From: a virus | Taxonomy: Duplodnaviria; Caudoviricetes | Virus record (IMG/VR): IMGVR_UViG_3300046167_000515 | Coordinates: 1-55,069 of that record | Strand: one strand, 5' to 3' | DNA: 55,069 bases | Shown: in pieces, positions 29,184-39,285 of the stretch | How the letters are laid out: the number at the start of each line of letters is the position of its first letter | Position numbering within the stretch: the first letter of the stretch is position 1 | Program-made: the position numbers and the translations under genes | Notes under the pieces: generated by a model | Told to the model about the DNA's origin: nothing | The model's database searches: none | What the model saw: only the letters and a program-made list of their open reading frames with translations

Positions 29184-29257
29184 TACCCCCGCTAGGACTC
29201 GAACCTAGGACCCACAGCTTAGAAGGCTGTTGCTCTATCCAGCTGAGCTACGAGGGC
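29184..29257 (-). tRNA. tRNA-Arg (anticodon TCT)
   Basis: GCCCTCG TA GCTC AGCTGGATA GAGC A ACAGC CTTCTAA GCTGT GGGTC CTAGG TTCGAGT CCTAG CGGGGGT A forms a full cloverleaf; CCA is not encoded. Confidence 0.95.
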
Positions 29258-33802: not shown

Positions 33803-34594
33803 AGGATCAAAGATACGATAATACAGTTTTTGCGCCTTTACAACTTAATTAGTTTGACTGACGCTCCGTAGCTACTGTTTTATTACTTACATAAGTAATC
33901 CTAAAGACAGCTTCGTAGGTTTAAAACATCTATGAAGCTTTATCGCTGAATAGCTTTGGCGAAGTTACAACTTTTTTCTTACAAAGTCAAGTCAGCAAAA
34001 TGCTTTAGGTAAACCCTATAAGTCACTAAGTGACAGCTTCTTAACCCGTATATAGTGGTAGCGCGTTGATAACTCAGTTGATAAGCCACGTTCGAAAAAG
34101 GGGCCAGCAATACAGATCGTGGGGATTATATGTATCATGAGTTGGTTGGGGTATCACCCCAAAACCAGATGCTTAAACCCCGTAGGTATAATGCAAGGGG
34201 GTTTTTGCCAAGGATTCTGGCTTTTAACCACAGCTAGTAAGCTGTGTTTAAGTAGGATGACCACCTTTGGTAGGACTCAAACAGCAGTAAACGTAGTTTA
34301 AACAGCAATCAATCAGCTTGGAACAATCCCCCCTCTTAACCTCTGGTTAAGTATATACCTTCATTTATGAAGGTCCAGTGGCTTCGAGGAAAATCTCTCC
34401 AATGTGTATGAAATCCCTTTAGGGATCGCGTCATTGGTAGTCAACCCGTGAGTATTAGCAAGCTAATACCGTAGGTTGAATGGAGTAGAGATAGAGTATA
34501 TGAAGAAGGAGTCTTATGACTTCTTCATTTACTCTTTATCTCTTAAGGTTGGTTTTGGAAGTCGACCATCCTTGAGGAACTCAAAATCTCTACC

Positions 34595-35664: not shown

Positions 35665-35689
35665 CTACCCTAAAGGGTAAAAAAATAAA

Positions 35690-35721
35690 TTTGGAATAAC
35701 GGAAAGTCTGTTATATCTTTG
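35690..35721 (+). promoter_or_regulatory. Bacteroidota sigma70-type promoter (-33/-7)
   Basis: TTTG (35690) N20 TATCTTTG (35714). Confidence 0.8.
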
Positions 35722-35758
35722 CAATCGGCAATTCAGCCAAACTCAAAATCTCAATCCT

Positions 35759-37173: not shown

Positions 37174-37181
37174 AAAATAAA

Positions 37182-37213
37182 TTTGGATTAATGGATTCTG
37201 TCCCTTATCTTTG
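37182..37213 (+). promoter_or_regulatory. Bacteroidota sigma70-type promoter
   Basis: TTTG (37182) N20 TATCTTTG (37206). Confidence 0.8.
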
Positions 37214-37249
37214 TATCGACAACAACGTCAAAATCAAAATCTCAATTAC

Positions 37250-37642
37250 ATGAAATGTACACACAACACATTGACCCACTTGCTAGGTGCATGGGACAGA
37301 CTAGAAGTAGTCGGAATCAACCCCGACAATCACAAGTCCATACTCACAAGCACATTACTACCTCATCGCAATGAGTTCGGAAAGAGGCAAGTCAAAATAG
37401 CTATCGAGTATCGAATCGAAGATGGCTTTGCAAGAGCCGCTCCGTATATATATGCCTTCCTCGTCATGTACGATCAAAACGGACACCGCAGAAGCGTCAT
37501 CAAGAATGGCTCATGGGGTTGTCATGGTGAGGATATGATGGAGTTCAAGTTGTGGTTTTCAAAAAAGATGCGGGCTGCTCATGATATGCAAGAGGAGCGC
37601 ATCGAGAATGCACAGGACAGCATCACTGACTTCCTGTCATAA
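37250..37642 (+). CDS. Hypothetical early protein
   Basis: Start reassigned to ATG 37250, downstream of the promoter and CAAAATCTC motif. Confidence 0.55.
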   Translation: MKCTHNTLTHLLGAWDRLEVVGINPDNHKSILTSTLLPHRNEFGKRQVKIAIEYRIEDGFARAAPYIYAFLVMYDQNGHRRSVIKNGSWGCHGEDMMEFKLWFSKKMRAAHDMQEERIENAQDSITDFLS

Positions 37643-37650
37643 CGAATCCC

Positions 37651-38090
37651 AATGAGTGTGAGTTAGGCGAAACCAACCACTGCAAACGTAGGCTATATGG
37701 CGTGTCTACGGCTCATTACATACAAGCAACTACATCAATCACCTTGCTGAGATGTAGCCAAGTTTACAAGTAGGGTTGCCCGATACCTTGTGGGTACAAC
37801 GAATCAAGGTAGGTGGGGGTGTGCAGGTTGAGATGTACACCCTCCCCGCAACATAGCGATAATGACCCTGCATGAATACAGGGGACGGCATCGGCAACGA
37901 TTCGCTTCGAAGGTCTTGGTGGGCTTAGCTTACCTTTAAAATTCAGAGACAGCCTTCGATAACCTCGGCAGAGGGGCGGACACGGTTGAAGGTGGGTTCG
38001 ATTCCCACTATCGCTACAACGGTACCCACCAATTAAATCTGGTAGGTGGGCTAAGTCGATACCAGGACCACTGAGCGCGAAAGCGTGGAT
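37651..38090 (+). ncRNA. Candidate structured ncRNA cluster including a tRNA-like element (37854-38016)
   Basis: Gap between plus-strand genes with many nested stems, GNRA loops, a canonical T-arm and an acceptor-like stem. Confidence 0.6.
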
Positions 38091-38145
38091 AGAAGGGATA
38101 AACAAAGCCAATCTTATTAATTCAAAATCTCAAACACATAACACA

Positions 38146-38316
38146 ATGATGACACGACAAGAAAAGATTGAACGCTACATCGAATGCGTAATAGACAACA
38201 TGGACTACAAAACCATGTATAGATACGTCTACGACACAATTAAGTACAGCATGGAGCATGACCACACAGACGAAGAGATTGACGATTTGTACAACGAATA
38301 CTTTGAAGAACAATGA
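38146..38316 (+). CDS. Small acidic early protein
   Basis: MMTRQEKIERYIECVIDNMDYK...; 56 aa, read manually, preceded by CAAAATCTC. Confidence 0.55.
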   Translation: MMTRQEKIERYIECVIDNMDYKTMYRYVYDTIKYSMEHDHTDEEIDDLYNEYFEEQ

Positions 38317-38992: not shown

Positions 38993-39238
38993 ATGACAAA
39001 CTTTGAACAACACATCGGGCATGAATTGCCTCAGGCGATACTCGATCACATCGACGCACACTCAACGGAGGAACTCATGCGACAAGCGGAGAAGCTTAAG
39101 TTTGATTCAATCTGCCCCGTGCTTATGGAGAATGACTCACCTGAACTGCGCAAGGAATTAAAAGAAGCAAGCGAACTGCTATTCAAATACATTGATTTTC
39201 AGTTAGTTACAGATGAAATTTGGAATTCTGAAAACTAA
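38993..39238 (+). CDS. Hypothetical early protein
   Basis: 81-aa ORF. Confidence 0.5.
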   Translation: MTNFEQHIGHELPQAILDHIDAHSTEELMRQAEKLKFDSICPVLMENDSPELRKELKEASELLFKYIDFQLVTDEIWNSEN

Positions 39239-39250
39239 GTCTTATCTTTG
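39219..39250 (+). promoter_or_regulatory. Bacteroidota sigma70-type promoter
   Basis: TTTG (39219) N20 TATCTTTG (39243). Confidence 0.8.
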
Positions 39251-39285
39251 TAGCGGCAATGTTGCCAAATCAAAATCTCAATCTA

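Follow-up and report, generated by a model that had tools for sequence, protein, structure and literature searches.

Introduction

The large RNAs GOLLD and ROOL are phage-borne, highly structured and often found near transfer RNA (tRNA) genes, and the RNase III sites between the early genes of phage T7 are structured intercistronic RNA that could cut and stabilise messages. The small RNAs RNAC and RNAD of phage T4 come from the T4 tRNA region, from the same transcripts as the tRNAs, and have no known role (PMC3014915). Phage M3 RNA, the C4 RNA of phages P1 and P7, precursor transfer-messenger RNA (pre-tmRNA), tRNA-like pseudoknots of plant viruses and polycistronic messenger RNAs (mRNAs) are non-tRNA substrates of RNase P (PMC11143913). 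Here we analysed the IMG/VR virus record IMGVR_UViG_3300046167_000515, a stretch of 55,069 bases (the window), in which a first-pass annotation had marked structured RNA modules at 37651-37852, 5’ to a tRNA mimic, as either several small RNAs in tandem or one folded RNA of about 440 nucleotides (nt). Our favoured reading, held with moderate confidence, is that this region consists of two cassettes, A and B, of a hypervariable array, and that both are small stable RNAs which would be released by tRNA-type processing and act in trans. The array, A-B-C-D with C as the tRNA-like unit, appears to lie inside an early operon.

T4 RNAC and RNAD are the nearest precedent. The likeness is one of placement, with no sequence or model relation known: in contig L091, of another phage lineage, a homologue of B has tRNA-Lys on one side and tRNA-Arg on the other. 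In the window, by contrast, B adjoins a tRNA look-alike instead of a true tRNA, the cassettes can be swapped and are found in many combinations, and the host is apparently of Bacteroidota type instead of E. coli. The substrates of RNase P suggest how the acceptor/T-arm mimic C could direct cleavage and release of neighbouring RNAs, but cleavage of C is presumed by analogy and C has no encoded CCA. GOLLD and ROOL share with the array that they are phage-borne and highly structured, whereas the array is made of separable cassettes of 78 to 168 nt and matched no model of these RNAs at expectation values (E) up to 10. Like tmRNA, the array has a tRNA-like acceptor/T-arm domain with pseudoknots nearby, and its sole Rfam match, in the T arm, was to tmRNA models; unlike in tmRNA, the pseudoknots are not part of the tRNA-like unit but of cassettes that can be separated from it. 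In contrast to the T7 RNase III sites, the array units are not simple long duplexes: they carry a pseudoknot in D and a candidate one in B, a putative three-way junction and a tRNA mimic, and they are dispensable and swappable.

Results

The array is built of exchangeable cassettes

The early region has its largest non-coding gap, of 503 nt, at 37643-38145, between two + strand open reading frames (ORFs). Relatives of the locus were fetched through the upstream ORF, which gave 14 IMG/VR loci and 51 metagenome loci, 45 with distinct downstream sequence; a protein-alignment search in IMG/VR returned the same 14 loci as the single-protein search. When the gap was compared with the relatives by blastn, the matches split sharply at 37720/21, 37850/51 and 38018/19, dividing the gap into units A, B, C and D. 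Arrays that reached the leader motif of the next gene were counted as complete. The 28 complete arrays showed 17 architectures. ABCD was found in seven of them, the window included, and the others included BC, ABC, BCD, ABCDE, AC, ACD, CD and A-X-D. A was present in 16 and B in 19 complete arrays, both together in 12, A without B in four and B without A in seven; B was also seen without D, and D without B. The order of the cassettes was colinear in all complete arrays but one, and the borders were short ACA-rich linkers. We found that sequence identity of C was uncoupled from that of the flanking ORF (for example, 84.6% for the ORF and 98.8% for C in L056; 91.3% and 88.3% in L042), which indicates that cassettes have been exchanged between lineages. 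Cassettes are thus gained, lost and exchanged independently between related phages, and of the two possibilities left by the first-pass annotation it was the tandem of small RNAs that the sharply bounded, freely combined units bore out.

Relatives held extra units, E and F, and alternative tRNA-like units, C’ and X. Of the extra units, seen in L002 (3831-3932), L007 (3585-3790) and L088, E had a GGACG...CGTCC closure followed by a T run, and F ended in a strong terminator-like hairpin (ACCCCCTCACC...GGGGGT and Ts). A search of two relatives’ arrays against Rfam gave nothing credible for E or F. Positions 428-623 of L058 formed a natural hybrid of B and D, joined at a common GGTAGGT. B (AATCAAGGTAGGTGGGGG) and D (AAATCTGGTAGGTGGGCT) have this GGTAGGT and a pseudoknot layout in common, so a duplication relationship between them may exist. 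Many contigs (L003, L008, L009, L010, L012 and several metagenome loci) broke off inside the array, no more than a few hundred bases past the upstream ORF. Such ends fit a hypervariable spot, where strain-level variation probably breaks assemblies.

The gap as a whole folded better than shuffled sequence on the + strand (z -3.47, with none of 100 shuffles as good), compared with z -0.74 on the - strand, and many conserved G-U pairs in B and D fit the + strand only. The cassette helices covary as RNA of the + strand.

Structure and distribution of cassette B

The sequence elements listed by the first-pass annotation were all found where it had placed them. Pairing in B was counted in an alignment of 34 matches (26 distinct), fitted to the model. 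The proposed partners paired in 96% of cells, versus 39-48% when partners were slid, with eight pairs changed on both sides; over all B counts, the core included, the ranges were 96-97% and 38-50%. The hairpin CTACATC/GATGTAG (H1) had five of its nine pairs changed on both sides, and the long GC-rich hairpin GGGTGTGCA/TGTACACCC (H3) three of 13, so that both proposed hairpins gained comparative support. H1 changed in relatives to CTACACC/GGTGTAG with two outer pairs gained. A second lineage (L087, L090 and L091) carried CTAACATC/GATGTTAG at H1 and a different sequence with retained pairing at H3, and B of L091 folded alone gave the same H1 and H3 (z -2.73). The 40-nt core between the hairpins was identical in both lineages, whose flanking hairpins differ.

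In the three contigs of the second lineage, the B homologue takes up exactly the interval that separates tRNA-Lys(ttt) from tRNA-Arg(tct), in the tRNA cluster and on its strand. The order in L091 was tRNA-Met, 62 nt, tRNA-Lys, the 135-nt B homologue and tRNA-Arg. The 62-nt spacer (L091 4049-4110) held a small hairpin element, CAGGT-CACCGA-CACCTG, dissimilar to A. The only true tRNA gene of the window phage, tRNA-Arg(tct), has the same anticodon as the tRNA 3’ to the B homologue in L091.

The layout of the B core is compatible with a classical local H-type pseudoknot, which is unproven. All S1 and S2 cells paired: S2 (ACCTTG/CAAGGT) was invariant across the alignment, S1 varied between G-U (21 rows) and A-U (three rows), and the other changes fell in the 8-nt loop. 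The sequence GTGGGTAC had been read as a loop engaged in a long-range pseudoknot; that distant partner failed, whereas a local partner, UGCCC at 37777-37781, may fit. The GTTGC/GCAAC stem, thought to close the domain, was broken in L063 and L042 (GAAAC), L036 (GCTGC), L088 and L091 and is not supported. A second candidate in this segment, the hairpin GUUG..CAAC (37775-37800) seen in some minimum-energy folds, was rejected for four independent uncompensated breaks. In the H1 loop (37736-37750), CACCU was kept in most alleles of both lineages. It is complementary to AGGUG at 37811-37815 in B, and we take the same CACCU to resemble the 3’ tail of 16S ribosomal RNA.

Conservation of cassette A

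The three-way junction was the minimum-energy fold of 37643-37720 and made up 46% of the ensemble. The 30 copies of A comprised five distinct 78-nt sequences. A core of 67 nt was identical in 28 of 29 locus rows, some of which are the same contig present in two collections, while the adjoining ORF ranged from 74 to 100% nucleotide identity. The sole variant, L061, changed arm 2 from G-C to A-U and from G-U to G-C. The single compensatory pair lends the arm 2 pairing comparative support, and with so little covariation the three-way junction is plausible, not proven. Identity of the core may reflect extreme constraint, recent spread, or both. A pattern scan for A gave six matches, all six within the same phage group.

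The tRNA-like unit and cassette D

C combines a 7-base-pair (bp) terminal stem, a 5-bp T stem and a UUCRANN loop, the features of a tRNA-like minihelix. The T loop varied only as UUCRANN (TTCAATC, TTCGACT and TTCAACT were seen), and changes in the stem were wobble or compensatory. A tRNA-like unit occurred in 26 of the 28 complete arrays and came in five size classes (41, 95, two kinds of 130 and about 163-165 nt; window, L005, L047, L088 and L095). The acceptor stem and T arm were common to the classes and the inserts different, like a scaffold with variable cargo; in L088 the unit was a bare 41-nt acceptor/T-arm minihelix. A pattern scan for C gave matches in the same phage group only.

With one exception, ARAGORN and RF00005 gave no tRNA call in 37601-38200. 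A tRNA model produced by ARAGORN at a relaxed threshold was rejected as implausible, requiring a 119-nt intron. C also differed from tmRNA: pair 3-70 was G-C instead of G-U in 17 of 17 variants, the pseudoknots were in separate cassettes, and ARAGORN called no tmRNA. A short frame, GGC AAC GAT ... GCT TAG (GNDSLRRSWWA), is present in C at 37894-37929. A covarying hairpin holds its stop codon in the loop, and a second allele has GTT TAA instead. A tmRNA tag is an unlikely identity for this possible tag-like frame, given that its first codons are part of a GCAA-capped hairpin and that the 3-70 pair is G-C.

In D, all 133 of 133 cells paired across seven distinct sequences, versus 15-35% in slid controls, and four pairs were changed on both sides (three of six in h1, one of seven in h2). 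On this covariation D qualifies as an H-type pseudoknot with two interleaved helices. D lies directly 5’ to the leader motif of the next gene. The first-pass annotation had joined GTGGGTAC (37790-37797) to GTACCCAC (38022-38029) in a long-range pseudoknot. The 8-nt complementarity is present in the window, yet the gap contained three exact complementary 8-mer pairs versus 1.65 +/- 1.6 in 500 shuffles, 26% of which reached three, and the match was kept in four of 14 distinct arrays having both B and D. The remaining 10 have GTACTGAC in D, although GTGGGTAC is unchanged in B. Since CCCACC pairs with GGTGGG in the covarying local pseudoknot, the proposed 3’ partner belongs to D, and the long-range pairing was abandoned. 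A helix between C and D in the whole-gap fold (TTGGTGGG at 37916, CCCACCAA at 38025) was rejected on the same grounds.

Transcription and coding potential

A promoter-like cassette occurs three times in the window, each time with the leader TCAAAATCTCAA and an ATG behind it. The leader alone, without the promoter-like cassette, also precedes genes at 34581 and 38122, and as a gene-start motif it gave five matches versus 0.46 expected. TAnnTTTG, which at -7 and together with TTTG at -33 we take to make up the Bacteroidota promoter consensus, was absent between 37214 and 39096. These features suggest phage early promoters with a common leader that is not of Shine-Dalgarno type. The gap 37643-38145 contained neither a promoter-like cassette nor a predicted terminator, so it is probably co-transcribed with the upstream ORF from 37178-37213.

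The possibility of a hidden ORF was rejected. No + strand ORF of at least 30 amino acids (aa) was present in the gap, and a - strand open frame of 121 codons fell to 58-100 codons, with shifting frames, in 16 relatives. It was therefore not a conserved ORF that homologs had kept in place of the pairings.

Of 24 runs, 22 of them recorded as RNA, from 18 studies, four from four studies were compared with the locus; their contigs are assemblies that show neither RNA ends nor levels, and the parts they leave uncovered carry no meaning. RNA-library contigs from two studies spanned the ORF, A, B and C (X2 37200-38016; X1 37232-37885). Such bridging is weak evidence of transcription, as DNA carry-over is possible. 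One contig stopped with the last base of the tRNA-like unit, 38016, and a single contig end is no evidence of processing.

Searches for known families

At the gathering threshold, Rfam 15 gave only the tRNA-Arg gene in the whole window; the families covered include hammerhead, twister, pistol, hatchet, riboswitches, GOLLD, ROOL, 6S-Flavo and CRISPR-DR. With E up to 10, the only match was the T arm, which scored 12.5 and 11.3 bits with two tmRNA models whose cut-offs are 84 and 47 (E 0.15 and 7.7). The resemblance to large phage RNAs raised in the first-pass annotation thus found no counterpart among GOLLD, ROOL and the other Rfam models. blastn of the gap, of A and B together, and of B of L091 against GenBank phages gave no real match, and a query that included the flanking tRNAs of L091 found generic tRNA genes only. 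The pattern of the B core had one chance match in 185,579 species genomes, within a penicillin-binding-protein gene. A B pattern with free S2 positions found in IMG/VR two further chance matches only, in a GC-rich coding region. The 3’ half of the L091 tRNA-Lys as query returned only the same three contigs. By these model and sequence searches, no array unit belongs to a described RNA family. Full-text literature searches gave no description of the array RNAs, which may be listed in the supplementary tables of a catalogue that covers 10,006 viral RNA candidates found in IMG/VR (PMC10690425).

The phage and the features of the locus

The window, from a marine phage with a host apparently of Flavobacteriia type, had a completeness estimate of 91%. 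Its terminase showed 40-46% identity to terminases of Flavobacterium and Cellulophaga phages, and its genes had no Shine-Dalgarno sequences. The upstream ORF had no PHROG and no Pfam match, and PHROGs and Pfam scans of the neighbouring proteins gave nothing with an RNA-related function. The phage codes for a RecE-like exonuclease, and no integrase was found among 20 window ORFs scanned against PHROGs.

Table 1. Coordinates of the array and of associated features in the window
Feature	Position	Strand	Description
Promoter-like cassettes with leader	35686-35754, 37178-37245, 39220-39281		three copies; AAATTTGG, ~19 nt, TATCTTTG, then leader TCAAAATCTCAA and ATG
Promoter-like cassette and gene-start motif	37178-37245	+	likely start of array-carrying transcript
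Upstream ORF	37250-37642	+	130 aa from ATG 37250 (143 aa if from TTG 37211)
Cassette A	37643-37720	+	candidate three-way junction
A closing stem	37651-37657/37711-37717	+	AATGAGT/GCTCATT
A arm 1	37658-37680		followed by junction strand 37681-37686
A arm 2	37687-37693/37704-37710		CGTAGGC/GTCTACG; 10-nt loop
Cassette B	37721-37850	+	H1, candidate H-type pseudoknot, H3
B hairpin H1	37730-37736/37751-37757		CTACATC/GATGTAG
B GTTGC/GCAAC	37775-37779/37848-37852		sequences present in B region
B candidate pseudoknot S1	37777-37781/37792-37796		UGCCC/GGGUA; GAU linker before S2
B candidate pseudoknot S2	37785-37790/37805-37810		ACCUUG/CAAGGU; U between S2 and S1 3’ strand; 8-nt loop
B TACCTTG/CAAGGTA			sequences present in B region
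B GTGGGTAC	37790-37797		sequence present in B region
B hairpin H3	37812-37825/37834-37847		GC-rich, 13 bp; GGGTGTGCA/TGTACACCC
Unit C by blastn	37851-38018		
Cassette C	37854-38016	+	tRNA-like: acceptor-like stem, T arm, ~130 nt of inserted helices
C acceptor-like stem	37854-37860/38010-38016		TAGCGAT/ATCGCTA; 7 bp
C T arm	37992-38008		GTGGG-TTCGATT-CCCAC; 5-bp stem
Cassette D	38019-38114	+	H-type pseudoknot, GAAA-capped hairpin 38068-38088, A-rich tail
D h1	38025-38030/38045-38050		CCCACC with GGTGGG
D h2	38038-38044/38060-38066		TCTGGTA/TACCAGG; interleaved with h1
Gene-start motif	38122-38133	+	TCAAAATCTCAA; precedes ORF 38146-38316; without own promoter-like cassette
Downstream ORF	38146-38316	+	3’ flank of gap
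tRNA-Arg(tct)	29184-29257	-	sole true tRNA gene of phage; 8 kb from array, opposite strand

Discussion

We propose that the promoter-like cassette at 37178-37213 would give rise to one transcript of the upstream ORF and the array, and that host tRNA-processing enzymes would release its units as small stable RNAs, using the tRNA-like unit as a handle. By analogy with known substrates, RNase P would cleave just ahead of that unit, near 37853/37854, and 3’ trimming would follow after 38016, a release resembling that of RNAC and RNAD from the T4 tRNA region. Once released, the RNAs would target a partner from the host or the phage in trans. An accessory function of this kind seems the likeliest role; that it serves host takeover or anti-defence is what we infer from the patchy presence of the units and their place among early genes.

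Several observations weigh against this reading. Fetching relatives by the ORF gave a sample of one phage group and a few pattern hits. Support from RNA libraries consists of assembled contigs only, in which the depth of the array was similar to that of the ORF. The claim that the fold is better than shuffled controls stood for the whole gap and not for A (z -0.85) or B (z -1.56) folded alone. The B alignment was fitted to the model and somewhat favours structure, and the H-type pseudoknot of the B core (37777-37810) is built on invariant stems and one one-sided change. A is near-devoid of covariation, so that its structure comes from the energy model and conservation, and its identity across diverged phages could reflect recent spread and not function. 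C has no cloverleaf, no encoded CCA and no G3-U70 pair, and its recognition by RNase P is assumed.

An alternative that we regard as unlikely is that the cassettes act in cis as punctuation or stabilisers of the operon mRNA, in the manner of the RNase III sites in the T7 early region. The transcript would be split by a cut at the tRNA-like unit; A and B, with the stable H3 last, would then shield the upstream ORF message at its 3’ end, and the D pseudoknot would shield the downstream message at its 5’ end. The setting suits such a role: the array sits between two ORFs of one apparent operon without an internal promoter-like cassette or terminator, B ends in a 13-bp GC-rich hairpin, D directly precedes the leader motif of the next gene, and some polycistronic mRNAs are cut by RNase P (PMC11143913). 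A generic stabiliser, however, needs neither an invariant 40-nt B core nor a 67-nt A core kept where the ORF is 74% identical; B of L091 lies between two tRNA genes instead of at the end of an ORF, and the cassettes are dispensable in close relatives. It is also quite improbable that the units work as DNA, as recombination or cassette-boundary sites or selfish mini-elements in which the RNA fold is incidental. An identical module in diverged backgrounds, sharp borders at ACA-rich linkers, the L058 hybrid joined at GGTAGGT, the many contigs ending in the array and the RecE-like exonuclease speak for such elements. Compensatory changes and changes from G-U to A-U or G-C that keep the RNA helices of B, C and D, the strand-specific fold with its G-U pairs and the lack of an integrase in the 20 scanned ORFs argue against the DNA-level explanation, as do a T loop that varies at tRNA-permitted positions only and an almost always colinear order, unlike free transposition. 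The borders, moreover, are not the repeated structured sites of integron-like or att-type elements.

That the gap makes one RNA of about 440 nt, clamping the tRNA-like domain through GTGGGTAC/GTACCCAC, is very improbable, being contradicted by natural variants. The 8-nt complementarity and the better-than-shuffled fold of the whole gap agree with a single RNA, but the match is at chance level and survives in four of the 14 arrays that carry both B and D, each of these two cassettes is found without the other, the covarying pseudoknot of D takes up the 3’ partner, and no large-RNA model matched. Equally improbable is mimicry of a host CRISPR repeat, in which GTTGC...ACAAC of B (37775-37800) would imitate a Bacteroidota repeat. 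Apart from the accessory, early-gene setting, the sole point for it is that the GTTG...ACAAC ends presumably resemble type II-C and VI-B repeats. Rows L036, L088, L050 and L052 have lost the GUUG/CAAC pairing with no compensating change, the segment of 26 nt is shorter than we take such repeats to be, and no CRISPR-DR model matched. A more ambitious form of the trans-acting reading, which we offer tentatively and consider doubtful, is a natural tRNA-scaffold system, in which swappable aptamer-like RNAs encoded in an early phage operon would be excised and stabilised by the tRNA-processing enzymes of the host, and exchanged between phages to neutralise factors or defences of marine Flavobacteriia. 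Its library would comprise the three-way junction, the pseudoknot-hairpin units and the variable cargo held in the acceptor/T-arm handle.

With the array, phage biology gains four or more candidates for structured RNAs that are undescribed, namely A, B, D and a tRNA-like scaffold with a variable insert. The conservation of A is unusual, with a 67-nt core that stays identical in phages whose adjacent gene is down to 74% identity. As short units with naturally occurring knock-out alleles, the cassettes lend themselves to study with simple constructs. Accessory loci of phage early regions are usually seen as protein genes, and the cassettes exchanged here are non-coding RNAs. If tRNA-type release and action on host factors hold true, the array would be a natural counterpart of engineered tRNA scaffolds for RNA expression and would mean that an abundant marine phage group uses RNA for takeover or anti-defence.

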